In this document: piece by piece, positions 844 to 20,215 of the stretch
Layout of the letters: each line of letters starts with the position of its first letter
Position numbering within the stretch: position 1 is the stretch's first letter
From: Myxococcales bacterium
Lineage (GTDB): Bacteria > Myxococcota_A > UBA9042 > JABWCM01 > BTVJ01
Length of the DNA stretch: 34,102 nucleotides
NCBI GenBank assembly: GCA_045863395.1
Contig: BTVJ01000080.1
Location: 1-34,102, forward strand
Direction of reading: 5' to 3'
Translations under genes and position numbers: made by a program
Notes under the pieces: model-generated
Databases searched by the model: none
Told to the model about the DNA's origin: nothing
What the model saw: only the letters and a program-made list of their open reading frames with translations

Positions 844-849
844 TATTCG

Positions 850-3948: not shown

Positions 3949-6201
3949 ATGGCGATGAAGTACGGCAAGTACCTGCTGGAGAAGCAGCTCGCCATCGGTG
4001 GGATGGCCGAGGTGTTCCTGGCTCACCAGGAGGGCCCGGCGGGCTTCCGCAAGACGCTCTGCATCAAGCGCATCCTCCCGAACTTCGCCAACGACGCGGC
4101 CTTCATCGATATGTTCCTGGATGAGGCGCGCACCGCGGCCCAGCTCAGCCACCCGAACATCGTCCAGATCTACGAGCTCGGCGAGTCGGACGGGTCCTAC
4201 TACATCGCGATGGAGTACATTCGGGGGCCGGCGCTCTCCAAGGTCATCCGGCGCCTCAAGCAGGCCGACCTGCACATCCCGTTGCACTACGCAGCCAAGA
4301 TCGTCGCGAACGTGTGCGCTGGCCTGGAGTACGCCCACACCTTCACGGACTCCGAGGGGCAGCCGCTCCACCTGGTCCACCGCGACATCAGCCCCGACAA
4401 CGTCCTCGTGAGCTTCGCCGGCGCGGTCAAGATGATCGACTTCGGCATCGCCAAGGCGAAGACCAACCAGTCGAAGACCCAGGCGGGCGCGGTCAAGGGC
4501 AAGTTCAGCTATATGTCGCCCGAGCAGATCATGGGCTCCACGCTGGACGGCCGCAGCGACCTCTTCTCGCTGGGGATCGTCCTCTACGAGCTGACGACCC
4601 TGCGCAAGCCCTTCGGCGAGGATGCGGACCTGATGACGGTGAGCGCCATCGTCAACGACCCGCCGCCCCTGCCCGCTGACATGTTCGAGGGGTATCCGCC
4701 CGCGCTTCAGTCGGTGATCCTCCGCGCACTGGCGAAGGACCGCAGAGAGCGCTTCGCTACCGCGCAGGAGATGCAGAACGAGCTGGAGCGGTTCATCCAC
4801 GAGCAGGGCGAGTTCCTGAGCGAGCGCGACATCGGCAACTACATGACGCGCCTGTTCAGCCAGTCTCCGTCCGATCTGGAGACCTTGCGCCAGCTTGGGA
4901 CGGGCGTCCGCATGAAGCTCACGGGAGTCCCCGTGGTTCGCGCGGTCACGGGCGTTGGAGCCGACGAGGAGACGGTGCTCGCTCACGGCACCGGGCAGGT
5001 CATGCTCTCGCCCGAGCCGGAGACCATGGAGATCGAGCGCACACCGCCGCGGGGCGCCCCTGCGGACGACCCGGACGCGACCCGTCAGGTCCGGGCCGTG
5101 AGTGAGGCACCCACAGCAAGGGAAGCCGACGCCCCAAGGTCTGCGGGTGCAGAGGCGAACGGCACCCGCCCGACACCCAGAGTGGAGCCGTCTGACTCTC
5201 GCACGACGGCGCAGCCAGCTTCAGGGGGCAGCAAGAAGGGCCTCTGGCTCGCGCTTGGCCTGGTGGCTCTCGCCGCGGTCGCGGTAGGGCTGTGGTTTGC
5301 CTTCGGCGGCGGCACGCCGAGCACCGGCGCGGCCACGACGGGGACCGGCAGCGCTGCCCCCGTCGCCGTGGCGTCGGATGCCGTCGCGAGGCCGGAGGAC
5401 GCAGGTGGACACGCGGCCCGGAAGGACGCACAACCGGCGGCCCCTGACTCGAAGGTCGCGCTGGCAGCACCAGTGGATGCAGGGAGCCCTGCGCCCGAAG
5501 ACACAGGGACTGCGGCGACGGACGCGGCGCTCCCCGGGGACACCGCATCGGGGCCGAGTCCCGACGTCCAGCATGCAGTGGACGCCGCTCCCGCCGACGT
5601 CGCTCCCCCGGCGCCCGACGGTGCCAGGGAGGACGCGGGCCAACCTCCCGTCGACGCAACCACGCCCACGGCGGTGGACGCTGGAGCAGCGCCGGCTGCT
5701 GAGGACACCCTTGCGGCTGTGGACGACGCCCTCGTGGCCGCGGACGTAGAGCAGGAGCCCGACGAGACGGAGGACGTCCAGGCAGCGGAGGGGATCGAGT
5801 CCGGCAAGGTGCGCGTCACGTCCGAGCCGGCCACCGACGTCTACTGGGCTGGGCGCAAGCAAGGGCGCACGCCGTTGACGCTGGACCTCCCCGCCGGTCC
5901 CCAGACGATCAAGCTCAGAGGTCCAAGCGGCCTGCGCAAGACCCTCTCAGTGACCGTACAGCCAGACAGGCAGGTCACAGCGTCCTTCACCGCCGTGCGT
6001 GGCGTCGTAGCCTTTGAGGTGCCCCGCGGCGTCCTCGTCTTCTTGAACGGTGCCTCGCTGGGCGCCGCACCCGTGAAGATGCAGCAGGTCTGGGAGGGCG
6101 AGCACACGGTGGAGCTGCGCAGCCCCGACGGCCGGCGCACGGTTCGCTCGGTCAAGATCACGAAGGACGAGCCCAAGGTCCTCGTGAGGCACACGTTCTG
6201 A
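3949..6201 (+). CDS. Membrane Hanks-type Ser/Thr protein kinase with Asp/Ala/Pro-rich linker and C-terminal PEGA-like domains
   Basis: LAIGGMAEVF, IKRI, HRDISPDN, DFGIAK, KGKFSYMSPEQ and DGRSDLFSLG motifs; TM segment GLWLALGLVALAAVAVGLWFAF; PEGA-like VTSEPATDVYW..GRTPLTLDLPAG. Start is ATG 3949 or 3955. Confidence 0.95.
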   Translation: MAMKYGKYLLEKQLAIGGMAEVFLAHQEGPAGFRKTLCIKRILPNFANDAAFIDMFLDEARTAAQLSHPNIVQIYELGESDGSYYIAMEYIRGPALSKVIRRLKQADLHIPLHYAAKIVANVCAGLEYAHTFTDSEGQPLHLVHRDISPDNVLVSFAGAVKMIDFGIAKAKTNQSKTQAGAVKGKFSYMSPEQIMGSTLDGRSDLFSLGIVLYELTTLRKPFGEDADLMTVSAIVNDPPPLPADMFEGYPPALQSVILRALAKDRRERFATAQEMQNELERFIHEQGEFLSERDIGNYMTRLFSQSPSDLETLRQLGTGVRMKLTGVPVVRAVTGVGADEETVLAHGTGQVMLSPEPETMEIERTPPRGAPADDPDATRQVRAVSEAPTAREADAPRSAGAEANGTRPTPRVEPSDSRTTAQPASGGSKKGLWLALGLVALAAVAVGLWFAFGGGTPSTGAATTGTGSAAPVAVASDAVARPEDAGGHAARKDAQPAAPDSKVALAAPVDAGSPAPEDTGTAATDAALPGDTASGPSPDVQHAVDAAPADVAPPAPDGAREDAGQPPVDATTPTAVDAGAAPAAEDTLAAVDDALVAADVEQEPDETEDVQAAEGIESGKVRVTSEPATDVYWAGRKQGRTPLTLDLPAGPQTIKLRGPSGLRKTLSVTVQPDRQVTASFTAVRGVVAFEVPRGVLVFLNGASLGAAPVKMQQVWEGEHTVELRSPDGRRTVRSVKITKDEPKVLVRHTF

Positions 6202-6319
6202 GCGGAGTGGGGCGGCGAAGGCTCCCCCAATCAGGCGTACAGCCGCATCTGGGCACAGCATCCCGCCGAGGCCCACCAAATTGTGGGGGGCGCCTTGGCA
6301 CGCTGCCGTAGTGAGCGGA

Positions 6320-7480
6320 TCACTCGTTGATGGAGTTGCGGGCGAACTCGAAGCGGGTCACGTAGGGCATCACCTCGGGGATGAACAGGTGCTGCACTGA
6401 CGTGACGAGGTACTTACCCCCGAAGCGCTTCCCGAACTCCTTGACCTCGATGGTGTTCCCCGGGACGAGCTTCGGCGCCCCCTCCACCTCTGCCTCCCCG
6501 GTCACGAACTCCATGGCCAGCGAGTCGAAGATGGCCTGCGCCACCTTGTCGGCCTCGTCCTTGCTGTACACTGGGTGGTCGACGACCACCACCTTGGAGC
6601 CGTCGTCTCCAGAGCCGAAGAGCGCCTTGGTCGTCGCCTTGTGACCTTGGGTGCCGCCGAAGCTCAGCGTCGGTGACTCGGCCACGCCCACGATGTTCTT
6701 CTTCTGCTTGGGATCCCAGCCGCGGACCTCCACCCGGCTCACCTGCTTGACCGTGCTCATGCGGAACCGGATGTCCTGCGCGACATGCGGATCCGTGCCC
6801 TCCGGCTTCGTGCGCACGACCGTCATGGCAACGTCCGCGGGCTCGATCTTGCGCATGGAGAGCTGCTTGTCCTTGTCCGACGAGGTGTTGGCCTTGAAGC
6901 CCAGGTCGATGCCCAGCGACTTCACGAACTGATAGTCGTTGATGTTGAGCTGCGGAACGTGCCGGAACTTGGGCGGCGTATCGCCCAGCTCGCCTGCGGA
7001 GAGCTGGTGCTTGGTCCCCTTGTGTCCGCCGCTGTTCTTGATCACGTCGTCGACGATGGTCTTGTAGTCGAAGGCGTCCTGCTTCTTGTCGTCCCAGGTC
7101 TTGGACCGCGTCCCGCGGGTGAGCCGGTGGGAGCGGTCGTACCCGCTGATGGTCACCGTTCCATTGCCGTCCTTGCCGTAGTGAGGCTCGACGTAGGAGA
7201 TCTCACCCTTGAAGACCAGCTCCTCCTTCTCGTACCCGATGTGGATCTCGACTGGGTTGCCCTCCTTGAATGTGTCGAGGAAGGTCAGCTCAGTGCCCAC
7301 CAGCAGGTGATAGTCCACCGTGAACATGTCCGGGCTGTCGAGGCGCTTGTCTACGTGGATGCGGGTGATGTGCAGCCCATTCGCGGTGGTCAGAGTCTCC
7401 TTCCCGCTGGAGGTGGAGAAGTCTGTCTTTCCATCGATCTTGATGGTGATCCGCGGGATTGTCGCCTTCTGCTGCGCCAT
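6320..7480 (-). CDS. Baseplate hub, phage late control D/gp27-like (N-terminal part of VgrG/Afp8) with no gp5 spike domain
   Basis: LDSPDMFT, FKGEISYVEPHY, GYDRSHRLTRG, QVSRVEVRGWDPKQKK and GKRFGGKYLVTSVQH motifs; lies directly after the LysM tube gene. Confidence 0.85.
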   Translation of the reverse strand: MAQQKATIPRITIKIDGKTDFSTSSGKETLTTANGLHITRIHVDKRLDSPDMFTVDYHLLVGTELTFLDTFKEGNPVEIHIGYEKEELVFKGEISYVEPHYGKDGNGTVTISGYDRSHRLTRGTRSKTWDDKKQDAFDYKTIVDDVIKNSGGHKGTKHQLSAGELGDTPPKFRHVPQLNINDYQFVKSLGIDLGFKANTSSDKDKQLSMRKIEPADVAMTVVRTKPEGTDPHVAQDIRFRMSTVKQVSRVEVRGWDPKQKKNIVGVAESPTLSFGGTQGHKATTKALFGSGDDGSKVVVVDHPVYSKDEADKVAQAIFDSLAMEFVTGEAEVEGAPKLVPGNTIEVKEFGKRFGGKYLVTSVQHLFIPEVMPYVTRFEFARNSINE

Positions 7481-7489
7481 TGCGCCCTC

Positions 7490-8263
7490 CTACACGAGGA
7501 TCGGAGGAACGACGAGCTTCGTCCCCGGCTTGACATTCATGGGGTCGTCGAGGCCGTTGGCGTCGGCGATGCGCCGCCACTCGCGCGGATCGTCGTACTC
7601 CTGGTACGCGATGCTCTGCAGGGTGTCGCCGCGCCGCATGGTCACCAGCTTTGCGTGGTCGGGGGACTCGTTGGCGGCCATCTCGTGCTGCTGCTGCTCG
7701 GGGCGGGCCTCCTTGAGCGTCACGTTCACCTTGGCCCGCACCGGTGTCCCGTCGTTGAGGAACATCGTGTACTCGACGTCGAGGCTGGTCACCTTGAACG
7801 GCGGGCAGTTGTAGATGTCCACCTGGTTGCCGAAGTTGCCCCAGGTGAAGATCACGAACGGCGGGTCGTGCTGGTCCTTGTTGTCTCGCAGCGCGAGCTT
7901 CTCCAGCTTGTCGATGTACTCCGTCCGCACGCTGGTCCGCTTCTCGAAGGTGTCGAAGATGATGTTCGACAGCGTCAGCGTGCGACCCTCATTGCCTCCA
8001 TAGGTCTTGTCCGCCGAGTCCGAGGACGCGTCGCGGGTCTGACGCCACTGGGGCGTGACTGTCCACTTCACGCTTGCAGGGTTGTACATGAACGTGATGG
8101 GCGAGACCGCCGTGTTGGGGCTGGTCGACGCGTTCTTGCCCTGGCCGTCGACAGTCACCGGGACGATCTGCGCCTTCTCCAGCTTCCCTCCCCAGATGCC
8201 GGCGTCGATCGCCCCTGTGATGGCGCTCAGCCCCGCGCTGATCAGGTCTTGTGCGATTGCCAT
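7490..8263 (-). CDS. CIS tube-initiator protein with C-terminal LysM (Afp7/Pvc7-like)
   Basis: FMYNP, TLTLSNIIFDTFE, PPFVIFTWG and YTMFLNDGTPVRAKVNVTLKE motifs; LysM segment RRGDTLQSIAYQEYDDPREWRRIADANGLDDP. Confidence 0.9.
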   Translation of the reverse strand: MAIAQDLISAGLSAITGAIDAGIWGGKLEKAQIVPVTVDGQGKNASTSPNTAVSPITFMYNPASVKWTVTPQWRQTRDASSDSADKTYGGNEGRTLTLSNIIFDTFEKRTSVRTEYIDKLEKLALRDNKDQHDPPFVIFTWGNFGNQVDIYNCPPFKVTSLDVEYTMFLNDGTPVRAKVNVTLKEARPEQQQHEMAANESPDHAKLVTMRRGDTLQSIAYQEYDDPREWRRIADANGLDDPMNVKPGTKLVVPPILV

Positions 8264-11200
8264 ATCCCTCTCCTTTCAAGCTGAACTCGACTCATGATGC
8301 TGATCCGGTTGGCCATCTCGACCGCGAGCTTGTCCAGGTCGACCTTTGCCTCGGCCGCCTGCTTCGAATCTGATTTTCCTGCGTTGGCAGGCGCCGAAGC
8401 CGTGGGTGCCCGATCCTCGCGGGTGCTGAGCTGCGCCTGCGTGGCCACCGCCATGGTCGCCGGGGCGATGAGAGGGAGGTCGGCCCGCGTCACAGAGCCT
8501 GCTCCCAGTGTGGCCCGCGACAGCATCCCCATGTCCGGCGTCGAGCGGTTGCCCTCGCGGGCTGGGGCGTGCGGTGAGACCAGGCTCCAGTCCAGGTCGT
8601 CGAGCGCCGTCGGGGCCACCGGAGCGTGAGGTCGCGGCTCGACGTGAGCGAAGCCGCCGCCTCCTCCCTCGCTACGACCCGCGCGCGTGGCGCCCTGCCG
8701 GGCAGCAGTCGCCGTGTCGAGCGAGAACGGGTCGCTTCCGAGGACGGGTGAGACGAAGGACATCAGTCCCGAGGCGCCCAAGTCCGAGACTCTCGGTGCG
8801 ACCGACCCTCCGCCTCCTCGCAAGCCCGCCACGAGCTCCTCCACGGAGCGGCCCCCGGAGAGCGTGTCGATGGCGGTCTCGAGGCGCACAAGCAGATCTC
8901 GCGAGAAGCCAACGCCCCCACCAAACGCAGCCTCGCGTGCGGCAGCCGATGTGGGCAGGCCGTCGATGAGCGACGCGAGCTCACGCTGAAGTGGTGTCGC
9001 GGAGCCCCCATCGGAGAGGCGCCTGATCAAGCTGCTGAGCTGCGTCCACGCGGCGCTGCCGGAGCCGCTTGCAGGCCCGGTGGCCTCGCCCGGCACCTGA
9101 GGTCGGGTCGCGGGCGCCGCCACGCCGCGCGCTCGCCGTGCGCCCTTGCCCGGCGCCGCCGAGCGCTCGTGTCGCGCTGAGGTGCTCTCCCCCGTTGCCA
9201 GCTCCGTGGTCCCGTGAGGTGTCTCAGGACCAACACGAACGAGCGCGGCATCAAAGCCCAGGTCCCGAGTGGACCTGACAGCACCCCGCGCCGGTCGACC
9301 GCTCGCACCAGGAGCGGTGCCGGTGCCAGCCACGGCCGAAAGTGCGCCCTCAGTGTGGGGTGCCCCGCTCTTGCCGACGCGCTCGCTCACAGGCTGGAAG
9401 TGTGACGCGCGGCGTCCGCTGCGACCGATTCGCGGTCGCGACTCCTGCGCTTCGACAGCGTCACTCTGGGGGCCACCGGTCTCCAGTGCAGGGACGACGA
9501 AGCCCAGCTCTGCGCCCGCTCCCCGCAAGAGCGCGCTCTGGACAGGGGCCTGCGTGGCCCCGTGCACGGTCTCCGGCGACGACGCGGACGTCCCCGCCAC
9601 CATCCGCTCCGTTCGGCGCAGCATGCGCTCAGTCGCGCCCAGCACGCCGCCAGCGGAGGACTCCGTGGTCTCCGCGAGGGCCTCGGGAGTGACGAGATCG
9701 AGGTCTCCTGACAGCCCGTAGTCGCGGACCCCGACGTCAGGGATGGGCTCGAGTGCGAGGCCGGTCCGCTCCCCGGCGGCCTCCAAGCCCAAGGTCTGGA
9801 GGTGACGGTCCGCGAAGCCGATGCTCGACAGCGCGGTGCGAGCCGCGGGTGACAGGGCCTCCCAGGCGCTCGATCTCGCTCCGGCGAACGAGGACGTCTC
9901 ACTCCCGGCGCCGAGCCGAGCTGCCGAGGCGGGCGCGACGCCTCCATGGCGTCCCTCCCCGATCTCCCGGCCCACCAGCTCGAGGAGCAAGCCTGCACCC
10001 GCATCGGTGAAGCTCGACGCGCTGCTGCTCAGCGCCCACGCGAGGCGCTCAGCCGCACGCCCGATTGAATCCCCTGGTGCCTGCCCAGGCACCTGCCCAG
10101 CACCTCCGCGCGCGGTGCCGGAGACGCCCCGTCGGCTCGTGGTGGGCCCGGCTGCCCTGGCTTCTGCGATTGTCCTTGCGGCCGAATCGAGCGCCGCGGC
10201 GCGACTCGCGCCGGACGTCGCCGTGCGAGACATGCTGCCCACGGCTCGGGACGGCGCGCGGAGCGTGTCCAGCGCCACCAGGGACCGGCCGAGCGATGCT
10301 CGAGATTGGCTCGCGGTCAAGCGCTCCGCGACGATGTCGGCCGCACCGGGCGCTCCCGCCGTGAGCTCCGGAGCCAGCATCCCCAGCTCGGGGGCGTGGC
10401 TCAGGAGGCTACGGTAGGCAGTCAACGCGGTCTGCGGGTCTGCAGTGCGCTCCAGCAGTCCTCGGAGCGAGGCCATGACGGCCTCGGGGAGTCCCAACAC
10501 GGCGCCTCGGGCCACGTCGGTCTGCGCCGTGCCCATGGAGTGAACGAGCCGCTGCGCGTCCAGGTGCTCGACCAGGGTCGGGAGCGCGGCCAGCGCGCTC
10601 TGGCCCTCGGCCGCAGGCAGCACCACCTGAAGGGGGGGAAGTCCCTCCGTCGCACCGGACGATGCTCCGGTCGCCAACGGCGTGGAGCTCCCTCCACCCA
10701 ACGCAGTGCGACTCCCAAGCGTGAAGGGGAGCAGCCGCCCACCAGGCATGCGCACCGATACCCGCACCGGTCCCCGGTCGGCGGCCCCAGCGGCGCGCTC
10801 GGACAAGGAACCAACAGTCCGCCCGCGGGCGTCCATCCGGCTGGTCGAAGGCCCGCGCGGGTGGTCTCCGCCCGTCGTACGGGTAGTCCCCGCGTGCGTC
10901 GTGTCCTGGCGCGCCACCCGCCGTCCGAGCGCAGTCTCCACGGCGAAGTCAGCGGACTGCAGCGAGGTCAGCCCCCCCTCTCGGGGCATGTCCAGGAGGA
11001 TCGCCTCAGCCACGGAGCGGATGTGAAGCGGCGTGCCGGCTCCCTCCCTCGTGAGCGCGCGCATCACTTGCTCCGGCGAGGCATTGGAGGGCGCTCTGTG
11101 CAGCACGCCCAGCACCATCGCCGCCTCGGACGGACTCAGCGCCACCGCATCGACGAGGCGGCGGACGGTCTCGCCCATGCGTCCAGACCAGGAGCCCGAA

Positions 11201-12963
11201 CCAAGCGGCCTCCGCAGGGGGGCGCGACCGGTCGCTACTCCCAGCGCCGCCGAGTCGACCAGGACGCTGGCAGCCAAGTGTCTTGGTGCCTGCTGCGGCT
11301 GACCTTGCGTCCGTGACGGCGCCGCGGCGAGCTCCCCGTGGAGAGCGCCTTCGACGTCGTCGCCAGGACGAGGGAGGAGGGGGGAGGTGCGCGGCGGGCT
11401 CACCAGGGAGGGGAGCGCCCAGGCACCGGCCGGAGACCCGGATGTACTCCATCCGCCGCCAAGTAGCCGGGCAGGATCGGCGGATACAGGAGCGCCCGAG
11501 TCCGCGAAGGTTCCCCTCAGCGCGAACACCTCGGAGGGCGGCAGCGCACCGAGGTGGGCGGTCGCCGAGCCCCGCTGGGCTGGAGCATGGCCGCTGCTTC
11601 GTGGCTGGGAGCCGACTGCCGCCGCGCGAGGAACGACGTCGAAGAGCGACATGGACGGGCGGCGTGCAGTGCGTGGTCCCTGCACCTCGGCTGGCGCCGT
11701 GTGGATGGTCCCTGGCTCAGGACGGACCCAGTCCACGTCAAGCGAACTCCGCCACGACGGATCTGGGCTGGAGGTCGCCGCTGTGAGGCGGGCGACGCCC
11801 AGCATGCGGTCGATGACACCGGGACCGGCTACACCTGCGTGCGGTGCCCCTGGAGCTCCGAACGCAGCGTGAGCGACGCGCAAGGCGGAAACGAGCGCTG
11901 GGAGCGACGCGGCGCCGATGGGAAGGCCGTCGAGCAAGAAGGCCGACGCTCCCTGCGAGATACCACCCTGCCAGCGATTGCCCTGCCTCGAGGGCGCTCC
12001 CCCGACCAAGGGTCCGGCCGCTGCGTGCTGCGCGCCTGGGAGTCCCGTGGTCCCTGTCGTCGTCGGTGCGAAGGACCCCAACCCACGTCGTCCGAGGGCG
12101 GCGTCCAAAGGCAGGCCCGCACCGATCCGCGTGGCGGCCGACTGGGCAACCCGCGCGAGCCGGCCTCGCGCACCTGCCGCGCTGCCGGCTCCCGCAAAGC
12201 GGGCCATCGAGCGCGCCGCTGGGGTGAGGTAGCGGGCACCTGCGAGGCCCATGGTGCGAGGGTAGGGGAACGTCCAGTCCACAGGCGCGGTGGGACCCTC
12301 TGGCTGCTGCGTCGGGCCCTGCGCAGCGCGCCTCGCATCGGTGGTCCCATCACCGGCGACCGACGATACGGGTGTCTGCTCGGCTGCTGCGAGATGGGCG
12401 AATTCACCGACGGGCCGCTCCCAGAGCGCGGGCCGCGATGGTGCTCCATGGCGCGTTGCGCGCGGTCCGGCCGCAGCGCGTGCCGTCGACGATGTGGCTC
12501 CCCGACCGATCCCCCTGCCGCGCGTGGGAGCGGGGCGCTGGAACAGGCTGCGCCGGACCGAATGGCGGACGTCTCCGCTCTCCGACAGCGCGTCTTGCAG
12601 CTCTTCGTCGGCCTCCAGGGCGATGACGACCGGGTCCACGTCGCCGAAGCGCCAGTATCCAGGCGCCGAGCCGCCCCACGTGGGGCCCACGGACCAGTCC
12701 GTTGCGTACCCGAGTGGTGCTCCGCGACCGAAGTCATCGGTCAGGTATCGCCCCTCCACCTGGGAGAGGAGGCCGGTCGTGGCACCCAGCCCCGCGCCGG
12801 GTCCGAAGCCAAACTTGGACGAGGAGATGCGGTCCGCCAGGGCGTGGAGGCCCAACAGAAGCTCCCGCTCGGCGCGTGCCAGACCGGCTCTTGGGGTGCC
12901 CGCCAGGCCCATCAGCTCCGACGCCGTACGTTCGAGGGTTCGCGTCTCGTTGCTCGTTGCCAT
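8242..12963 (-). CDS. 1573-aa Ala/Gly/Arg/Ser-rich, largely disordered CIS-associated protein (candidate tape measure or lumenal cargo)
   Basis: Uninterrupted 4.7-kb ORF between tube-2 and the LysM tube gene. It ends in the helix VDLDKLAVEMANRISIMSRVQLERRG, resembling the C-termini of proteins found at this position in eCIS loci, and overlaps the next start codon. Confidence 0.72.
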   Translation of the reverse strand: MATSNETRTLERTASELMGLAGTPRAGLARAERELLLGLHALADRISSSKFGFGPGAGLGATTGLLSQVEGRYLTDDFGRGAPLGYATDWSVGPTWGGSAPGYWRFGDVDPVVIALEADEELQDALSESGDVRHSVRRSLFQRPAPTRGRGIGRGATSSTARAAAGPRATRHGAPSRPALWERPVGEFAHLAAAEQTPVSSVAGDGTTDARRAAQGPTQQPEGPTAPVDWTFPYPRTMGLAGARYLTPAARSMARFAGAGSAAGARGRLARVAQSAATRIGAGLPLDAALGRRGLGSFAPTTTGTTGLPGAQHAAAGPLVGGAPSRQGNRWQGGISQGASAFLLDGLPIGAASLPALVSALRVAHAAFGAPGAPHAGVAGPGVIDRMLGVARLTAATSSPDPSWRSSLDVDWVRPEPGTIHTAPAEVQGPRTARRPSMSLFDVVPRAAAVGSQPRSSGHAPAQRGSATAHLGALPPSEVFALRGTFADSGAPVSADPARLLGGGWSTSGSPAGAWALPSLVSPPRTSPLLPRPGDDVEGALHGELAAAPSRTQGQPQQAPRHLAASVLVDSAALGVATGRAPLRRPLGSGSWSGRMGETVRRLVDAVALSPSEAAMVLGVLHRAPSNASPEQVMRALTREGAGTPLHIRSVAEAILLDMPREGGLTSLQSADFAVETALGRRVARQDTTHAGTTRTTGGDHPRGPSTSRMDARGRTVGSLSERAAGAADRGPVRVSVRMPGGRLLPFTLGSRTALGGGSSTPLATGASSGATEGLPPLQVVLPAAEGQSALAALPTLVEHLDAQRLVHSMGTAQTDVARGAVLGLPEAVMASLRGLLERTADPQTALTAYRSLLSHAPELGMLAPELTAGAPGAADIVAERLTASQSRASLGRSLVALDTLRAPSRAVGSMSRTATSGASRAAALDSAARTIAEARAAGPTTSRRGVSGTARGGAGQVPGQAPGDSIGRAAERLAWALSSSASSFTDAGAGLLLELVGREIGEGRHGGVAPASAARLGAGSETSSFAGARSSAWEALSPAARTALSSIGFADRHLQTLGLEAAGERTGLALEPIPDVGVRDYGLSGDLDLVTPEALAETTESSAGGVLGATERMLRRTERMVAGTSASSPETVHGATQAPVQSALLRGAGAELGFVVPALETGGPQSDAVEAQESRPRIGRSGRRASHFQPVSERVGKSGAPHTEGALSAVAGTGTAPGASGRPARGAVRSTRDLGFDAALVRVGPETPHGTTELATGESTSARHERSAAPGKGARRARGVAAPATRPQVPGEATGPASGSGSAAWTQLSSLIRRLSDGGSATPLQRELASLIDGLPTSAAAREAAFGGGVGFSRDLLVRLETAIDTLSGGRSVEELVAGLRGGGGSVAPRVSDLGASGLMSFVSPVLGSDPFSLDTATAARQGATRAGRSEGGGGGFAHVEPRPHAPVAPTALDDLDWSLVSPHAPAREGNRSTPDMGMLSRATLGAGSVTRADLPLIAPATMAVATQAQLSTREDRAPTASAPANAGKSDSKQAAEAKVDLDKLAVEMANRISIMSRVQLERRGIWQSHKT

Positions 12964-13012
12964 CGTCTCGCTCGCTCCCCGTCAGCGGTTGGTTGGGTCG
13001 CCTGGACTCTCG

Positions 13013-13726
13013 CTACGAAAGCATCGAGAGGCCCTTCTTGATGGCCGCTCCCAGCAGGGAGTCGAGCAGACCGCTGAGCGCATCGCCCGGGTGGAACACG
13101 AACCAGTCGTAGGTGATCTCGATCTCCTCGAACGCCAGGTCCGACTGCTTGGCGTTGAAGGACGGGCCCTTGTAGCGGGACACGAAGGCCCCCTTGAAGT
13201 CGTACCGCCCGACCTCGTCGCCCTTGGCGTTGGTCACCACCAGAGAGATGTTGTTGCGCACGGTCCCGGCGGGCGAGTCGAGCTGGTCCCGCATCATGTT
13301 GTAGAAGCCCGAGTGCCCGGCGTAGAAGCCCTTCTTGAGGACGAGCGGCTTGAACGAGGCGGGACCGATCAGGTTCACCTGGTTCATGTTGTTGCCGCCC
13401 TCGGTGAAGGACTCGGTCTTCACGGTCCACTCGATGCCGTTGGCTTCGGTGAACTTCGCCCACTGGATGCTATCGAACTCCAACCAGAAGCAGAACTGGA
13501 TGTCGGGGTCCGTGCGGCTCGACCCGAAGAGGAGGTTGTTGAGCGCGGAGATGCCTGCGAGGGCCGCGCCCGTGAGCGCCTTCCCTGCGGCGCCACCGAT
13601 GGCCCCCGCGAGGGAGCCGGAGACCCCGGCGCCCGCGAGAGCACCACCGATCTTGTTGCCTGCGATCTGCCCCGACCCAGTAGCGAAGCTGCCGGCCTGG
13701 CTGTCAATCACGCCTTTGATTGCCAT
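13013..13726 (-). CDS. Second T4 gp19-like tail tube protein (Afp5-like) with Gly/Ala-rich N-terminal extension
   Basis: RTDP..FCFWLE..FTEANG..FTEGGNN..LVLKKG..YKGPSFNAKQSDLAFEEIEITYD; GAGGAG RBS. Confidence 0.88.
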   Translation of the reverse strand: MAIKGVIDSQAGSFATGSGQIAGNKIGGALAGAGVSGSLAGAIGGAAGKALTGAALAGISALNNLLFGSSRTDPDIQFCFWLEFDSIQWAKFTEANGIEWTVKTESFTEGGNNMNQVNLIGPASFKPLVLKKGFYAGHSGFYNMMRDQLDSPAGTVRNNISLVVTNAKGDEVGRYDFKGAFVSRYKGPSFNAKQSDLAFEEIEITYDWFVFHPGDALSGLLDSLLGAAIKKGLSMLS

Positions 13727-13765
13727 GATCTCACGCTCCTCGATGGTTCACGCGCTCGCGGCGCA

Positions 13766-15553
13766 TCATTCTTGAACTGCCTCGGCCCCTGAGCCTGGAC
13801 CAACCTCTTCGACGGCCTGCTGCACGCGGAACACGATGAACTCCGCCGGTCTGACGGGCGACACCCCCACCTCGACGACGAGGTAGCCGGCATCACGCAG
13901 CTCCGGGGGGTTCGTCTCGTGGTCGCACTTCACGTAGAAGGCCTCCTCAGGCACCCGACCCTTGAAGTAACCGAGCCGCCACAGGTCCCGCAGGAAGAAG
14001 GACACGTTGCGGGTCACGCTCTTCCAGAGCCTCGGATGGTTGGGCTCGAACACCACCCACTGAAGGTTCGTGCCGACTGCTCGGATGATCCCGTTCAAGA
14101 CCCGCCGCACGTTCACGAACCGTGTGTTGGGGTCGCTGGACACCGTCCTTGCACCCCACACGCGTACCCCCCTCGTGGGGAAGTACTTCAAGCAGTTGAC
14201 GCCTCGACCATTCAAATAGCCGATGTCAGTGTCCTGCAATACTCGTTCCAGGTCGAGCACCCCCTCCAGCGCCACATTGGCGGGAGCATGGTGCAGCCCG
14301 CCGTCCGCGTCGGTCCTGGCGTAGGCCCCCGCGATGTGCCCGCTCGGCGGGACGAGGCGCTGCTTCCCCTCGTGCTCGACGATGATCCAGGGGAAGTAGA
14401 GCGCCGCATAGGCGGAGTCGAACTGGAGGCGCCAGTTCAGGGCCTTCAGGTGGTCCCGGGGGTCCGGGACGTCCAGGATGGCGAAGCGATCCCGCGTGCG
14501 TTCGCACTGCCCGATCATCTCATCTTGGACGACCTCCACGTTCTTCGTGGTGTTGTTGAAACCCACCGAGTGGTCCAGCGCCCACATCAGGTCCGGGATC
14601 ACGAGGAGGTCGACCTGCTCGATGGCCTCGAGGGCTCGGAGGCCGAAGCGGTGGCCCGGGCCATCGTCCCGCCCTATGAAGTCGGCCGGGGTGACGTTGA
14701 ACAGCCCGTCGGAGCCGTTGCTCAGGCGCAGATCCACGGCCTCTTTGGGGTAGCGCAGGTGGAGCGGAGCGTCGGAGCCCAGGTTCGTCAGCGTGATGAG
14801 CTGGGACTGGCCGTTGACCGCCCGCTCGAAGTAGCTTGGGCTCATGCGGGCAAAGGACAGGTCCTTGAAGTGTTCCCGGAGTCCCTCGCCTTGCACCTCC
14901 AGCTCGAAGGCCACCGGCTCGACGTAAGTCGGGCCACCTGACTTGAAGCCCGTCTCCACCGGCTCATCCTGGCTCCAGAACAGGTTCTTGCCGTCGACCT
15001 CCTGGACGATGCGGTGGATCTCGCGCGTGTCATCATAGATGCGGACTACCGTCCCCCGCGCAAAGCCGTGTGTGGACTTGATGGCGACGCCGTTGTCACC
15101 CGGATGCATGTCCAGGGTGATGAACGTCTGGACCCTCGGTGGCTGAGGCCGGACCGTCGCCGAGATGCCGTTGCCCCAGCTCCCCTGGTTGACCGCATCG
15201 ATCTGGATCGTGAGCTTGTCCTCGTGGTCCCTGAGCCGCGCAGAAGCGCTCAGCGCGATCTCGCCGCGCCCGTGCTCGGCCATGTGTGCCACCCGGAGCA
15301 CGAAGCACTCGCGGCCGCCGTTGGCGAAGAAGCCCTCCACGGCGGGTGCGAGGTAGGTGTCGCTCTCCAGGCGACCATAGATCTCCCGGAAGCGCTCCAC
15401 GGACGTGATGTGCACGGGCACGTTGGTCGGGCCCTTGCGCGTGAGTCCGACGAAGCCCGGGACGCCGCTGCGTGCGAGTGCCAGCGGGGCCACTCTCTTC
15501 TCGGTCTCGTCGTGGTAGACGCCCGGTGGTCGAAGACGCAGCGACTGCCTCAA
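13766..15553 (-). CDS. Contractile tail sheath protein 2 (large, with inserted domain)
   Basis: PPGVY, PGFVGLTRKGP, AVEGFFANGGRECFVLRV, DRFAILDVP, YAALYFPW, VPPSGHIAG, VWGART, WVVFEPN and PVRPAEFIVFR motifs. The preferred start is TTG 15553 behind GGAGG; the ORF track gives GTG 15607. Confidence 0.93.
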   Translation of the reverse strand: MRQSLRLRPPGVYHDETEKRVAPLALARSGVPGFVGLTRKGPTNVPVHITSVERFREIYGRLESDTYLAPAVEGFFANGGRECFVLRVAHMAEHGRGEIALSASARLRDHEDKLTIQIDAVNQGSWGNGISATVRPQPPRVQTFITLDMHPGDNGVAIKSTHGFARGTVVRIYDDTREIHRIVQEVDGKNLFWSQDEPVETGFKSGGPTYVEPVAFELEVQGEGLREHFKDLSFARMSPSYFERAVNGQSQLITLTNLGSDAPLHLRYPKEAVDLRLSNGSDGLFNVTPADFIGRDDGPGHRFGLRALEAIEQVDLLVIPDLMWALDHSVGFNNTTKNVEVVQDEMIGQCERTRDRFAILDVPDPRDHLKALNWRLQFDSAYAALYFPWIIVEHEGKQRLVPPSGHIAGAYARTDADGGLHHAPANVALEGVLDLERVLQDTDIGYLNGRGVNCLKYFPTRGVRVWGARTVSSDPNTRFVNVRRVLNGIIRAVGTNLQWVVFEPNHPRLWKSVTRNVSFFLRDLWRLGYFKGRVPEEAFYVKCDHETNPPELRDAGYLVVEVGVSPVRPAEFIVFRVQQAVEEVGPGSGAEAVQE

Positions 15554-15621
15554 GGGTCCTCCACCGTGCCCTGCCAGGATGGGCGGAACGTGATTGATCC
15601 ACTTCACAGCGAAGCGGACCT

Positions 15622-15651
15622 AAGTTAGCACTCCAGTGGCGACGGACGCAA
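15622..15651 (-). promoter_or_regulatory. Candidate internal sigma70 promoter for sheath-2 and downstream genes
   Basis: Minus strand TTGCGT, 18-nt spacer, TAACTT with an extended -10 TG. Confidence 0.4.
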
Positions 15652-15859
15652 CGCCCGACTACGCCGCGTCCTGTTCGCACAACCCCCGGACCGCCGCAGC
15701 CACGCGCGACTGAACCGTTCGTTGGGCTGCCTGAGCGCCTCGACGCAGCCGAGCTCATCGTGCTGGGGCCCCATCGCAACCACGGGGCAGCCACTGTCGT
15801 CGGTTTGCCTGTCGGGGCCGTGGAGCGCAGGCCGAGGATCCGTGAGAGCTCCACCAGGT

Positions 15860-16021
15860 CTACTTCCTGGTCTTGTTGATCTCCCGGTTGATCTCGCTGA
15901 TCTCCCGCACCCAGGTCTGGCGCTCGCGGTGCTCCATCTCCAGGATGTCGTCGAGCGACCAGTGGAAGTGATAGGCGACGTACGCTACCTCCTGGTACAG
16001 GCGCTCCAAGGGGTAGCTCAC
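15860..16021 (-). CDS. Small tail-assembly-chaperone 'T'-like ORF (DUF6760-like), 53 aa; probably also or instead expressed as a -1 frameshift fusion to the upstream chaperone
   Basis: Below the ORF-track cutoff. (V/M)SYPLERLYQEVAYVAYHFHWSLDDILEMEHRERQTWVREISEINREINKTRK*; GTGA overlap with the upstream stop; typical codon usage. Confidence 0.85.
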   Translation of the reverse strand: MSYPLERLYQEVAYVAYHFHWSLDDILEMEHRERQTWVREISEINREINKTRK

Positions 16022-16389
16022 AATTCCCCCGAGTCACCCCCCATGGAGATCTCGAACTGGTGCTGGCACTCGGGGCAGGACACCTTGACCTTGTTGGTGC
16101 CCTCTTCATTGATCTGACGGTAGAAGTCCTGCAGGAACTGGAGGTCGCTGGAGTACATCCCCTCGATCACGCTGGGGTTGATCGACTGGATGTCGCCGAG
16201 CTTGGTGATCACCCGGCTCAGCAGCAGGATCACGAGGTACGCGCGGTTGTTCTGGACGCGGTAGTCCTGGAGCGGGAGGATCTCGTCCTTCGCCGTTGCC
16301 AGGCGCATGACGCCCTTCTTGTGGACGTTCCCGTCCTTGTCTACGAAGCCCTTTGGGAGGGTGAACTCGAACTCGGTCTTGAACGCCAT
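16018..16389 (-). CDS. Phage-tail assembly chaperone-like protein (gpG-like) with C-terminal CxxC
   Basis: MAFKTEFEFTLPKGFVD..GVMRLATAKDEI..AYLVILLLSRVI..DLQFLQDFYRQIN..CPECQHQF; sits right after the tube gene; GAAGGGG RBS. Confidence 0.82.
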   Translation of the reverse strand: MAFKTEFEFTLPKGFVDKDGNVHKKGVMRLATAKDEILPLQDYRVQNNRAYLVILLLSRVITKLGDIQSINPSVIEGMYSSDLQFLQDFYRQINEEGTNKVKVSCPECQHQFEISMGGDSGEL

Positions 16390-16432
16390 GGGTGGGACTT
16401 CCCCTTCAGGTTTCTTGGAGCGTGGATATGGA

Positions 16433-16552
16433 ACCGGCCCGCCGCTCAGGGCGCGCTGCCAGATCATGCGTGAGGGCTCCGGTTCCGCCTCTGGCGATGG
16501 GGAGTGACCCTGGCAGCATGGTCAGGCTGTGCGCTCTGAGCGACGGGCCGGT
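16433..16552. repeat. Long imperfect inverted repeat (37-bp arms, 31/37 complementary, 46-nt structured centre)
   Basis: ACCGGCCCGCCGCTCAGGGCGCGCTGCCAGATCATGC (16433-16469) pairs with GCATGGTCAGGCTGTGCGCTCTGAGCGACGGGCCGGT (16516-16552). Confidence 0.85.
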
Positions 16553-16605
16553 GATGTACGACGCGGGCACAGCCAGGAGACTGCGCCCGTCTCGCACGCA
16601 GTCTG

Positions 16606-17037
16606 CTAGCCCTTCTCGATCTTCTCGACGGCGAGCTCGAGCTCCTCGACGTTGACGTCAGCGCCCTTGCCGTCGAGGGTGAAGCCCTTCCACTTGGCCG
16701 GCCAGGCCTCGAAGAAGTTGTAGCGCATGATCTCGCCGCCGTCGTCACCGCAGAGGATGACGGAGCCGCTCTTGCGCTCGACGACGCCGTCGATCACCTT
16801 CTTCCGCCACTGCCACAGCTCGTCCGTGGCGATGTAGCCGCGCTTCAGCACGACGTTGCTGTACTTGGTGCGGCCGGGGCGCTTGCGGAGGATGATGTCG
16901 TCGCCGTCCTGGTACTCGACGATCTCCGTCTCGGAGTCGAGCCCCTCGACGTTGCGGAAGGCACCCTGGGTGACTCCCTCGATCTCCACCTTGAAGTTGA
17001 AGTTACCGATGTGGTCATGAGCTCTTCTGTTCGGCAT
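16606..17037 (-). CDS. Major tail tube protein, T4 gp19-like (Afp1/Pvc1-like)
   Basis: NFNFKVEIEG..FRNVEGLDSETEIVEYQDG..RKRPGRTKYSNVVLKRG..WPAKWKG..VEELELAVE; AGGAG RBS. Confidence 0.96.
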   Translation of the reverse strand: MPNRRAHDHIGNFNFKVEIEGVTQGAFRNVEGLDSETEIVEYQDGDDIILRKRPGRTKYSNVVLKRGYIATDELWQWRKKVIDGVVERKSGSVILCGDDGGEIMRYNFFEAWPAKWKGFTLDGKGADVNVEELELAVEKIEKG

Positions 17038-17099
17038 CTCCTGATCTCCTCTGGTCGGAAAGTGTCGGGGAGTGTTCCTGGTACCCCTCGGCCACGTTG

Positions 17100-17132
17100 A
17101 AAATTACCGGCGGGGCAACCGATGCCCCGCCG
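17100..17132 (-). terminator. Intrinsic terminator-like hairpin between sheath-1 and tube-1
   Basis: Perfect 10-bp stem CGGCGGGGCA/TGCCCCGCCG (17108-17132) with a 5-nt loop, followed on the minus strand by GTAATTTT. Confidence 0.6.
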
Positions 17133-17142
17133 ATCCCTCGAA

Positions 17143-18303
17143 TTACTCGCTGATGTCGCCTCCCGCCGGCATCTGGCCGATGCGGAAGATCACGAACTCG
17201 GCCGGCTTCACCGGGCACATGCCGATCTCGCAGATCATCTGACCGGCGTCGATGACCTCCGGCGGGTTCGTCTCATCGTCGCACTTCACGTAGAACGCCT
17301 CCTCCGGCGTCTTGCCGAAGAGGGCGCCCTGGCGCCACAGGCGGAGCAGGAAGGCGCTGATGTCGCGCGTGACGCGCTTCCAGAGCCTGTGGTCGTTGGG
17401 CTCGAACACCACCCACTGGGTTCCCAGCTCGATGGACTGCTCCACCATGTTGAAGAGGCGCCGCACGTTCACGTAGCGCCAGCTCGGGTCGCTGGAGATC
17501 GTGCGCGCGCCCCACACCCGGATGCCCCGGTTCGGGAAGCTGCGGATGCAGTTGATCCCCTTCGGGTTGAGGATGTCCTGCTCACCGCGGGTGATGTTGT
17601 ACTTGAGGCCGAGGGCGCCGCGCACCAGCTCGTTGGCGGGCGCCTTGTGGACGCCGCGCTCCGCGTCGCTGCGGGCGTACACGCCGGCCATGTAGCCGCT
17701 GGGCGGCTGGTAGATGTTTCCCTTGATCGGGTCGTAGACCTCGATCCACGGGAAGTAGTAGGAGCCGTACTTCGAGTCCCGGGGCTTCGGGAGCTTGTCG
17801 ACGCCGCCCTTCTCGATGGTCTCCGGCGAGTCGAGGATCGCGAAGCGGTAGCGCATGTTCTCGCAGTGCGAGAGGACGGCTTCTGTGATCGCGGGCTCCG
17901 TCTGGCCGGGGGCGCAGACGATGTTGATCTCCTCGATGTCCTCGAAGGCCTTCAGGCCTGTGCGGGTGCCGGGGCCGTTGTCCGAGCCGATGTACTTGCC
18001 CGCCTTGCCGGCCTTCTTGCCCTCTTCGCCGGCCTCCTCGGTGCCGACGTTCAGCACGAAGCAGCGGCCGCCGCCGTTGTTGAAGAAGCCGTACACCGCG
18101 TGCGCCAGGTACTCGCTGTTCTGGAAGTCACCGAAGTGCTTCGTGAACTGGCTCCAGTTGGTGCAGAAGATGGGCTCGTTCGTGGGGCCGATGTTGCACT
18201 CGCCGATGAAGGCGACGGTGCTGGTGCCGACCATCTCGAGCGGCTTTGTGCCGCGGTCGACTTCCTCGACATAGACACCAGGAGACAAGTACGAAGTAGC
18301 CAT
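17143..18303 (-). CDS. Contractile tail sheath protein 1 (compact, probable major sheath)
   Basis: YLSPGVYVEEVD, AVYGFFNNGG, RFAILD, YYFPW, PPSGYMAG, GVHKAPAN, VWGART, WVVFEPND and PVKPAEFVIFRI motifs; TAAGGAGG RBS. Confidence 0.97.
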   Translation of the reverse strand: MATSYLSPGVYVEEVDRGTKPLEMVGTSTVAFIGECNIGPTNEPIFCTNWSQFTKHFGDFQNSEYLAHAVYGFFNNGGGRCFVLNVGTEEAGEEGKKAGKAGKYIGSDNGPGTRTGLKAFEDIEEINIVCAPGQTEPAITEAVLSHCENMRYRFAILDSPETIEKGGVDKLPKPRDSKYGSYYFPWIEVYDPIKGNIYQPPSGYMAGVYARSDAERGVHKAPANELVRGALGLKYNITRGEQDILNPKGINCIRSFPNRGIRVWGARTISSDPSWRYVNVRRLFNMVEQSIELGTQWVVFEPNDHRLWKRVTRDISAFLLRLWRQGALFGKTPEEAFYVKCDDETNPPEVIDAGQMICEIGMCPVKPAEFVIFRIGQMPAGGDISE

Positions 18304-18545
18304 TGGTCCTCCTTAGCGGTTGCTATTGCTCACACCCCGAACCATTCGGGCACCGCGAGTCTCCGGGGGTCGCCTCGCGGCTCTTCCGGTGGTCGGCGGT
18401 GTCAAGCCATGCTCGTCGGGTCGCTCTCCCCGAGCCCGAAACTTCGGGCTCCTGCTTTGCGATCACTGGCATGAGCCTCATATGCACCCGCTGGGGGCCG
18501 TTGTGCCAACACGAGAGGTCTGCTTTCACTAGTGTCGGCTGGACC

Positions 18546-19130
18546 TCAGCGGACTGCAATATCCTTGCCAATGACGCGTCTGATCTCAGCGGACCGCCGC
18601 TCCGACTCCAACCGAAGCTTGATGTAGTAGTACACGGCGGGCCGCACCTCCTCGTTCAGGCTGCGCCAGAACGACAGGACATCGTTGTAGTCCGTCTGGA
18701 GGTTCGGATAGATGTTCAGGACATCGTTCGGGTAGAAGGAGTCGCCCTTCAGCCGTTCGCCCTGCACCATCGGGTTCTCCAGGAAGGTCTTCACCGCCAG
18801 GCCCATGAGGAGGTTCTCCTCGGTCGGCGTATTGCCCCAGATGGAGATGATGAAGTGGGCGAAGATGTAGAGCGGCGCGTCCTGGTAGTACTCGACGATG
18901 TTGCCGGTCTTGTCCTGCGTCGTGACCAGCGACTGGGTGCGCTCCTTGTACGTGGGAGCGAACGCCAGGTGGTACATGTAGCAGCTCACGGCCGGCTTGT
19001 TCTTGATGTTGTCTTTCTTGGGCACCTCGGTGGCGATGGTGACCGTCTTGAAGCCTGCTGCTACGAAGGAGTCCTTGAGGAGCTCCTTCATGGTCTCGCA
19101 CGCATCAGAGATGATCTGGAACTGACTCAT
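18546..19130 (-). CDS. Cap/terminator protein, Pvc16/Afp16 N-terminal (DUF4255)-like
   Basis: ISDACETMKELL..PAVSCYMYHL..PLYIFAHFIISIW..ENLLMG..FWRSLNEEVRPAVYY pattern, positioned upstream of the sheath gene. Start is ATG 19130 or GTG 19139. Confidence 0.8.
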   Translation of the reverse strand: MSQFQIISDACETMKELLKDSFVAAGFKTVTIATEVPKKDNIKNKPAVSCYMYHLAFAPTYKERTQSLVTTQDKTGNIVEYYQDAPLYIFAHFIISIWGNTPTEENLLMGLAVKTFLENPMVQGERLKGDSFYPNDVLNIYPNLQTDYNDVLSFWRSLNEEVRPAVYYYIKLRLESERRSAEIRRVIGKDIAVR

Positions 19131-19201
19131 GCCACTCACGAACCTGTAAGAGTCCGAAGGTCGGGTGCCGTTCGCTCATAGGTGCCTTCTGGGCCGGAGT
19201 G

Positions 19202-19420: not shown

Positions 19421-20215
19421 TCAGGAGAGGAGCGTGCGGACCTCACGGGCGATGACGTCCGCGAGGTCGGGGGAGGGGGCGGAGGGGATGGGGAGGTCCC
19501 GGGGGCCCGTACAGAGGCCGACATAGGTGCGGGTAGCCGGCGCTGGGCCGAGGCCGCGGGCCTCGGGGCCCAGGCCCGCCTTTGCGCGGCGGGCCAGCAG
19601 CCTGTCGACGTCCTCGGCCGGGATGGTCGTGACCCGGCCGAGCTGGAGCGCAGCTCGCTGGATGCGTGCGAGGTGCTCGACCAGCTCCATGCGGAGGAAG
19701 GCCTGCTCGAGGGTCGCGCCGATGGCCAGGACCCCGTGGTTCGAGAGGAGCACCACGTCGTGCCATGGCAGGGCCGCGTCGAGGGCGTCGACCGCTGCGT
19801 TCGTGCCGGGGAGCGCGTAGGGAAGAAGCGGGACGCGGCTGCCAAGGCTGACGACGGCCTCGGCGATGATGCGGGGGTCGATCTCCATGCCCGCGATGGC
19901 GAAGGCGGTGGCGTCCGGGGGGTGGGCGTGGAGCACGGCGGCAGCGTCGGGGCGCAGCTTGAGGGCGCGCAGGTGGAGGTCGACTTCGCTGAAGACCCGG
20001 TGCCGACCGTGGAGGACCTTGCCCGCCGAATCCAGCACCAGCAGATCGTCTTCTCGCAGCTCGCCCTTGCTGAAGGCGGTGGGCGTCGCAAGCAGCCGGC
20101 CCGCCTCCAGGCGCACCGTGGCGTTTCCGTCGTGGTTGGCGACCCAGCCCTTGGCGTCCACCTTGTGGATCCAGTGGACCAGCTCCCGCCGCAGCAGCGT
20201 CTGCGGGAGGCTCAT
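19421..20215 (-). CDS. Class II aldolase/adducin-family protein with C-terminal BMC encapsulation peptide
   Basis: DGNATVR, LATPT, SEVDLH, VLHAHPP and LLSNHGVL motifs; Pro-rich linker then amphipathic DLADVIAREVRTLLS. True start is ATG 20215, in an ATGA overlap with the BMC-P stop. Confidence 0.92.
   Translation of the reverse strand: MSLPQTLLRRELVHWIHKVDAKGWVANHDGNATVRLEAGRLLATPTAFSKGELREDDLLVLDSAGKVLHGRHRVFSEVDLHLRALKLRPDAAAVLHAHPPDATAFAIAGMEIDPRIIAEAVVSLGSRVPLLPYALPGTNAAVDALDAALPWHDVVLLSNHGVLAIGATLEQAFLRMELVEHLARIQRAALQLGRVTTIPAEDVDRLLARRAKAGLGPEARGLGPAPATRTYVGLCTGPRDLPIPSAPSPDLADVIAREVRTLLS

Follow-up and report, generated by a model that had tools for sequence, protein, structure and literature searches.

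How a contractile tail can serve a cell that keeps no spike, fibre or ATPase gene beside it is the question raised by contig C80 (BTVJ01000080.1), called the window here and analysed over its entire length of 34,102 nucleotides. The contig belongs to a genome of 8.8 Mb in 186 contigs (97% complete). Labels of the closest relatives are mostly Myxococcota, Myxococcales or Deltaproteobacteria, in agreement with the Myxococcota-type host proposed by an earlier reading of the DNA alone (the sequence-only reading). Between positions 19139 and 6320 the window encodes ten tail genes of a contractile injection system (CIS), all open and all on the minus strand, and this locus contains no spike, wedge, fibre, ATPase or lysis gene. 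Very probably, these genes are one half, from cap to hub, of a single intact lineage II CIS that is inherited vertically and has its other genes scattered over the genome; the whole likely forms a single syringe, which dispersed ATPases would fill with many toxins.

Three structural loci in one genome

All core parts belonging to an extracellular contractile injection system (eCIS) are present in the genome. The tail lies on C80. At C18:59053-49926 are the genes of a 62-aa zinc-ribbon protein, gp25, a 1,016-aa Afp11 (TIGR02243), a PASTA-Tail_P2_I protein (PASTA-Cis12), a 513-aa Cis13-like protein, an FHA protein, a VWA-TM-FHA protein with a transmembrane (TM) segment, and Yip1. C90:17194-21400 encodes gp5, PAAR, DUF2169 and an unnamed 282-aa protein. 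The hub in the window and the gp5 on C90 match complementary halves of the 547-position VgrG_rel model (positions 15-346 and 369-506, respectively). The domesticated CIS with baseplate and spike elsewhere, as proposed by the sequence-only reading, is thus borne out by a whole-genome profile search that placed gp25, Afp11, gp5 and PAAR on C18 and C90; the term 'tail-only' holds for the locus and fails for the organism.

The tail genes run from cap to hub, and their boundaries are those first noted. The cap or tail terminator (Afp16/Cis16, Pvc16_N; 18546..19139, minus strand like all genes of the block) matches PF14065 (E 1.5e-15) and is 80% identical to its counterpart in G001, a genome of the same order; the ATG at 19130 is the more likely start. 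Sheath 1 (17143..18303, 386 aa; PF04984 and PF17482) is likely the main sheath, with 83-93% identity in 25 near-full-length matches in relatives; the nearest sheaths in the PDB are Streptomyces 8bky and 8bl4, and 9ezm. Inner tube 1, of Afp1/Cis1 type (16606..17037; PF06841, E 1e-37; TIGR02241), is followed by a tail assembly chaperone (16018..16389) and DUF6760 (15860..16021). Next come sheath 2 (13766..15607; PF04984 and PF17482; about 575-613 aa with an uncertain start, orthologues 562-613 aa), tube 2 of Afp5/Cis5 type (13013..13726; PF06841, and CIS5_fam at E 2.7e-15, under the cut-off) and a giant open reading frame (ORF; 8242..12963). The block ends with a tube initiator bearing LysM (Afp7/Cis7; 7490..8263; PF19266 and PF01476, CIS_tube and LysM) and a gp27-like hub (6320..7480; PF05954, Phage_GPD), which corresponds to the N-terminal half of Afp8/VgrG. 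Coordinates, open frames and Pfam/PHROG identities confirm the ten intact, co-oriented genes and the flanks described earlier.

Parts on separate contigs of a draft fragmented into 186 pieces might also be expected from a decaying prophage or CIS remnant, or from an assembly artefact. This is hardly credible here. The C80, C18 and C90 modules each lie within their contigs, between unrelated genes. The kinase/hub junction at about 6250, where a misassembly had been considered, is bridged by contigs of two independent assemblies (run X5, 2436-17418; run X10, 5639-9080) and has the identical break and flanks in G001, by which that concern is ruled out. Relative to G001, codon second positions differ by 4-26% and third positions by 52-72% in all ten genes; dS is saturated at this distance, and by these codon-position differences, used in place of dN/dS, the ten tail genes are under purifying selection. 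Decay, which the sequence-only reading had also allowed for, does not agree with such selection in ten of ten genes or with baseplate and spike genes present elsewhere. Capsid, terminase, integrase and holin genes were not found among the 32 window ORFs (Pfam) or 16 window proteins (PHROGs), nor was any head, packaging or lysis match among the window proteins scanned with both. A prophage or tailocin was rejected on the lack of head, packaging, integrase and lysis genes in these proteins, together with the class-wide vertical inheritance described below. A separate prophage-like region with its own divergent sheath, distinct from the CIS, is located at C60:15830-36970.

Sludge, wastewater, bioreactor and aquatic material accounts for 20 of 24 rows (7 studies) of runs containing the stretch. 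Seven RNA-labelled runs (3 studies) hold it as contigs that may include DNA. A higher depth over tube 1 in run X19 is not taken as evidence of transcription, as the same rise occurs in X6, a run guessed to be DNA. A promoter and terminator scan gave no signal above that of shuffled sequences.

Arrangement and inheritance across the class

CIS genes were found in 33 of 41 genomes of the class. The hub and gp5 occur in 30 genomes each, Afp11 and the 282-aa protein in 31 each, and DUF4157, a domain of cargo-like proteins, in 33. The same eight genomes are without all five, and two of these have divergent sheath matches only.

Hub regions were compared in 18 relatives, picked for long contigs. The consensus operon reads lipoprotein, cap, sheath 1, tube 1, chaperone, DUF6760, sheath 2, tube 2, giant protein, LysM tube and hub, followed by zinc ribbon, gp25, Afp11, Cis12, Cis13-like, FHA and VWA-TM-FHA. 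Hub and baseplate are contiguous in 11 of the 18 and separated in 7, so the break in this genome, shared with G001, is a lineage-specific rearrangement. The spike behaves in another way: the best gp5 match is unlinked from the hub in all 27 genomes holding both (on another contig in 26, 113 kb apart in G013), and gp5 is not among the genes after the hub in any of the 18 regions. PAAR and the 282-aa gene are usually found at additional separate sites. In two Kofleriaceae genomes the order hub-gp5-gp5 is adjacent (this was not seen in G041 and G045), and the displacement of gp5 from the hub is on this account probably the derived state.

Such separation might suggest that spike and baseplate modules are exchanged between lineages, as the sequence-only reading had supposed in calling them swappable. 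The unlinked gp5 genes in 27 of 27 genomes and their varied neighbours would suit exchange, as would conflicts of the gp5 tree with the Afp11 and Cis13 trees, at two splits each. Against this stands the agreement of the gp5 tree with the hub tree, which share all six well-supported hub splits without conflict, so that the spike appears co-inherited and not swapped; moreover, gp5 for the most part occurs once per genome, and the orthologous PAAR is conserved at 58-70% identity. Five gene trees of 18 genomes recover the same family-level clades. Exchange is accordingly given very little weight. Patristic correlations between gene trees, which varied between -0.1 and 0.77, were given no weight.

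Other breaks were noted. Cap, sheath 1 and tube 1 are detached from the remainder in three genomes (G007, G021, G010), and G014 had no tube 1 called at its locus, which indicates that breakpoints vary by lineage. Two genomes titled Planctomycetota (L053, L054) show the same two-sheath architecture with 68% sheath identity, suggesting transfer or misbinning. Two records titled Enterobacteriaceae (L048, L049) carry a Myxococcota-type locus with 86-88% sheath identity, and their titles are probably wrong.

On the hub side, the tail block is flanked by a convergent Ser/Thr kinase gene with PEGA domains (3949..6201, plus strand; Pfam). Among kinases adjoining the CIS in six relatives, three have this kinase as best match, and by this comparison it is an ancestral neighbour. 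In several relatives, different combinations of the PP2C, UvrA and kinase genes (window 3-6201 here) are found upstream of the cap, and the tail block here is therefore inverted relative to theirs. The case for the kinase and PP2C as dedicated CIS regulators is purely positional, three of six kinases being orthologous. On the cap side lie a class II aldolase gene and two EutN/CcmL pentamer genes (19421..20759, minus strand; Pfam), which precede the cap solely in this genome and G001 among the regions compared and are outside the CIS. Of bacterial microcompartment (BMC) genes, this interval has the pentamer genes beside the aldolase only, and no BMC hexamer gene was identified in the window.

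Assembly, loading and firing

In the proposed mechanism, hub and gp5 would come together in trans as a VgrG-like spike, the chaperone pair with its frameshift would escort the giant protein as a tape measure, and tube and sheath would polymerise as far as the cap. ATPases would thread neighbouring cargo into the tube, as with Pvc15 and Alg15 elsewhere. Targets would be mainly bacteria, given that the cargo domains that could be named comprise peptidoglycan-binding domains, M15 peptidase and a single ADP-ribosyltransferase. The proposal is drawn from genes, and several points given below weigh against it.

The C90 spike was also considered as part of a separate Francisella-like type VI secretion system (T6SS) at C11:89887-103050 (TssB, C, K, E, F, G, IglI-family and a short TssI-like protein). 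This was rejected: a T6SS sheath is found in only three of the 41 genomes, from which it follows that the gp5 spike serves the CIS. Beside the T6SS lies a gene (C11:86917-89484) whose 855-aa product matches DUF294 and SidM N-terminal (nucleotidyltransferase-like) models. The 282-aa protein of the spike locus was modelled with a pLDDT of 92. Foldseek gave no match at E<=0.001, the best VIA match had Z 7.6 at rmsd 8.5, and an atlas search returned only unnamed Myxococcota clusters; the predicted fold may be new, fold searches without a match being no proof of novelty. Its predicted complex with PAAR (median 0.55, one control 0.42) was counted neither way. A second, extended PAAR of 181 aa, 61% identical to that on C90, precedes an M15 peptidase gene at C10:25686-26920 and is possibly a tip-borne cargo unit.

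The chaperone is G-like (123 aa; phrog_508, PHROG 508, E 3.4e-7) and 85% identical to that of G001. DUF6760 (PF20546, E 3e-16), with a weak match to P2 GpE, forms the T-like part. At the chaperone end, the heptamer G GGG GAA (16024..16030, minus strand) is a predicted -1 frameshift site; GGGGGAA is a slippery motif known from phages. The motif is in frame in 18 of 18 class genomes, with the -1 frame entering DUF6760 every time, and among 1,630 Gly-Glu codon pairs of the same gene set it occurs 36 times, these 18 sites included. DUF6760 has no start among its first four codons in 14 of the 18 genomes, nine of which have no upstream in-frame start either. In a wider set of 83 chaperone genes, 59 have the motif, many Streptomyces, Chloroflexi and archaeal loci among them, and most of the others have G-runs at that place. 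With a T-like half in the -1 frame and a slippery site at the G end, the pair has the two features by which phage G/GT genes are recognised; the conserved site points to a phage-type -1 frameshift and a predicted G/GT fusion, and the chaperone pair named by the sequence-only reading finds support. A literature search returned no paper on DUF6760 and no published report of a CIS chaperone frameshift, subscription papers being mostly outside the search; the word 'frameshift' is absent from the available text of four Streptomyces CIS papers (including PMC12237407, PMC11126660 and 10.1101/2025.11.06.686954).

The giant protein (8242..12963, minus strand; 1,573 aa, low complexity) is the candidate tape measure. 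All 19 genomes examined have an equivalent open ORF, of 975-2,103 aa, which is conserved only close to the C-terminus, where a helix is retained. A profile of this end matched 12 of 8,899 ORFs, three of them class members; in Chloroflexi and actinobacterial loci the matches are weak (E 1e-4 to 1e-2) and fall on ORFs in the equivalent position. The protein matches no family in Pfam, further profile libraries or PHROGs, and that its sequence resembles no known tape measure counts against the proposal. Streptomyces is described as having effectors related to tape measures (PMC11126660, 10.1101/2025.11.06.686954), so a role of the giant protein as cargo is possible by analogy. Particles of S. coelicolor are reported as uniformly 268 nm long without a recognised tape measure (PMC12237407); a slippery site with a large gene behind it would offer a testable answer for this uniform length.

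For the ATPases, a profile was built from eight lineage II cluster ATPases. The absence of an ATPase suggested by the sequence-only reading does not extend to the genome, which contains 13 full-length Afp15-type WHD-AAA ATPases (mutual identity 23-53%), scattered, often beside cargo-like genes, and none in a CIS cluster. The Walker A motif of the second domain is intact in 13 of 13, and Walker B was matched in 12. Nine DUF4157 proteins are likewise scattered, and for five of their genes an ATPase is found no farther than 6 kb away (null mean 0.2; reached in none of 20,000 shuffles). A sixth ATPase directly precedes a 2,101-aa protein with a C-terminal ADP-ribosyltransferase domain, which is directly followed by a small gene. 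Two lone DUF4157 proteins bear peptidoglycan-binding domains, one also an M15 peptidase. Across the class, 23 of 150 WHD matches listed are within 5 kb of one of 150 listed DUF4157 matches, in 14 genomes, where 1.25 would be expected (21 and 43 further matches, respectively, fall outside these lists); up to 16 WHD and up to 18 DUF4157 matches occur per genome. In the AlgoCIS, Alg15 is required to load DUF4157 cargo (10.64898/2026.05.27.728243), and the AAA+ ATPases Alg15 and Pvc15 are needed for cargo with a disordered N-terminus, with or without DUF4157 (10.64898/2026.05.27.728243; PMC11495950). By analogy, the dispersed ATPases would load cargo here, and that each is paired with a dedicated neighbouring cargo is offered as a hypothesis.

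Several observations weigh against loading by all of them. For eight of the 13 ATPases, the surrounding 6 kb contain no DUF4157 gene, and three of the eight CIS-negative genomes also have the WHD domain, so other work is possible for some paralogues. When 21 of 25 pairs, the closest ones, were compared, the ATPase tree was not mirrored by the predicted loading region upstream of DUF4157 (rho 0.03) and was mirrored weakly by the DUF4157 domain (rho -0.23, 22 of 2,000 permutations), mostly through one orthologous cassette.

Further observations concern the ATPase surroundings. Walker-A genes adjoining the cap in planctomycetes were tried as Afp15 and rejected as MutS. CpXC proteins are present in two ATPase/DUF4157 cassettes (C50:16188-16901, C30:59137-59973). 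At C16:37703-46152 a DUF4157 gene is followed by genes for a B12 radical SAM enzyme, a TPR protein and an ATPase, and the DUF4157 protein is possibly a modified cargo. The most divergent ATPase, at C1:53666-60008, precedes a protein with signal peptide and C-terminal TM segment, which by eye resembles the VWA membrane protein, and an amidase/M23 protein.

How the syringe is fired is less clear-cut. The FHA gene directly follows the Cis13-like gene in 14 of 18 relatives, and a predicted lipoprotein gene directly precedes the cap in 13 of 15; in this genome the best match to the latter is displaced to C54:38496-38963 and has no Pfam match. A search for the periplasmic VWA part detected it in 25 of 41 genomes, none of them among the eight CIS-negative ones or in family f8. 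These accessories favour membrane docking without showing it, and firing at the inner membrane through the VWA-TM-FHA and FHA proteins is preferred by a narrow margin over release by lysis. A fuller version must be called tentative: T6SS-like, phosphorylation-gated firing from a membrane dock built of a TssK-like adaptor, FHA, VWA-TM-FHA and lipoprotein, with each AAA+ paralogue a dedicated loader, an orphan spike unit including the 282-aa protein of apparently new fold, and frameshifted chaperones marking a lineage II tape measure. The TssK likeness derives from a predicted model of the Cis13-like protein with a pTM of 0.40, in which residues 7-318 align to TssK/IglD (Z 9.5-9.7, rmsd 11-12 A). 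A profile comparison with the genome's own TssK gave a probability of 0.2%, and no PDB sequence matched. The VWA-TM-FHA gene, a further point against docking, was not found in the four CIS-positive genomes of family f8 and is therefore not essential.

A free, released eCIS differs from the preferred reading in firing mode only and retains an appreciable, though lesser, chance of being correct. The Cis13-like protein would bind glycans on the prey surface, and the FHA, VWA and lipoprotein genes would regulate expression or ride along. Residues 364-512 of the modelled fibre match CBM35/CBM6 folds (CBM35: Z 10.6, rmsd 2.8 A, 121 residues), a carbohydrate-binding head compatible with release and to that extent adverse to docking. 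PASTA on Cis12, the fixed length implied by a tape-measure candidate and the f8 genomes point the same way. The fibre, however, is nearly invariant (505-518 aa, 42-64% identity among relatives), unlike diversified receptor-binding fibres, the three loci contain no lysis gene, and the FHA gene keeps its place beside the fibre.

On the model of Streptomyces, a cytoplasmic CIS might be turned on its own producer, in development or in death under stress, with VWA-TM-FHA taking the part of a CisA-like membrane adaptor; this appears rather improbable. The closest solved sheaths are those of Streptomyces, where CisA is a membrane protein needed for firing (PMC12237407), and cell-wall hydrolase cargo could be aimed at the cell itself. 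Up to 18 DUF4157 matches per genome, a fibre-like gene and the small gene after the ADP-ribosyltransferase cargo fit antagonism better.

Classification and known systems

By its gene content, the system is a variant of lineage II CIS. Core markers in the window are the Afp1/5 tubes, the Afp2/3/4 sheath, Afp7 and Afp16; the hub (window), gp5 (C90), and gp25 and Afp11 (C18) are spread, and Afp15 is represented by 13 homologues, all outside the cluster. In place of the usual single contiguous cluster, three structural loci and dispersed ATPases were found. Sheath 1 forms its own clade (support 99) relative to actinobacterial, Chloroflexi and archaeal sheaths, in a tree without a lineage I sequence or a true root. 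T6SS types i-iii (TssB/TssC sheath, no Afp11 or Afp16) were rejected on the phage-type sheath, Afp11 and cap. Subtype IId, with a single fused Afp8, does not agree with a separate, unlinked hub and gp5, and subtypes IIa and IIc, with two Afp11 copies, do not agree with the one Afp11 here; a weak second match on C29 sits among unrelated genes. Subtype IIb is marked by split Afp8, a single Afp11, presence of Afp6 and no PAAR; the first two are seen here, and a conserved PAAR is present. No lineage II subtype fits cleanly.

Cargo selection in eCIS is poorly understood: loading signals are unconserved, and with one ATPase per operon there is nothing to compare. The thirteen diverged paralogues here, several of which adjoin cargo of their own, provide natural pairs for testing the cargo specificity of loaders. 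The layout would give one syringe with many interchangeable payloads, in which the set of ATPases and cargo is what varies. Surveys based on clusters would miss or misfile such systems and their effectors. The CIS is also a candidate weapon of these uncultured Myxococcota, in which T6SS sheaths are rare. No published report was found of class-wide orphan spikes, multiplied Afp15 beside cargo, or FHA-bearing eCIS, in a search with subscription papers mostly outside it.

Every part type is already known. In dbeCIS (Chen et al. 2019, PMC6899500), lineage II has the core set Afp1/5, 2/3/4, 7, 8, 9, 11, 15 and 16, as here, gp27 and gp5 are separate ORFs in IIa-c, and split loci number 13 of 631. 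Split gp27/gp5 and the chaperone pair, the latter also in Streptomyces and Chloroflexi, are general lineage II traits, and the position between phage tails and eCIS given to the architecture by the sequence-only reading is not upheld. Unlike dbeCIS lineage II, the present system has gp5 outside the cluster class-wide, PAAR often at a further site, a multi-copy ATPase in no cluster examined, and FHA and VWA-TM-FHA genes attached.

The S. coelicolor CIS and Chloroflexi IId systems (PMC10066040, PMC12237407, PMC12998442) share the closest solved sheath, the chaperone with DUF6760 and a large low-complexity gene, a Tail_P2_I baseplate protein, and a membrane protein gene downstream of the baseplate. 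In the IId loci examined, a single sheath goes with a fused VgrG and usually with an ATPase next to them, in contrast to the two sheaths, orphan gp5 and TssK-like fibre found here. The eCIS-like clusters of uncultured marine Myxococcota (PMC11937823) are alike by description only, with a cluster of sheath and highly transcribed gp19 tube without other phage genes; the available text describes no orphan spikes, ATPase multiplication, FHA genes or frameshift.

Fibres of eBAP3 (PMC12923769) have a TssK-like shoulder domain and are anchored via a Tail_P2_I protein; in the model of the present fibre the helical neck also aligns to TssK/IglD, and its length, unlike theirs, is nearly invariant. The Halogeometricum CIS that acts as a T6SS (PMC11566945) is likewise of lineage II, with DUF4157 cargo partly outside the cluster and a candidate membrane anchor; it differs in being archaeal and in one cluster, without a tape measure, with another anchor protein and, in the text available, no dispersed ATPases described. 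AlgoCIS and PVC keep one ATPase within the operon, whereas genomes of this class hold up to 16 WHD matches each, often beside cargo.

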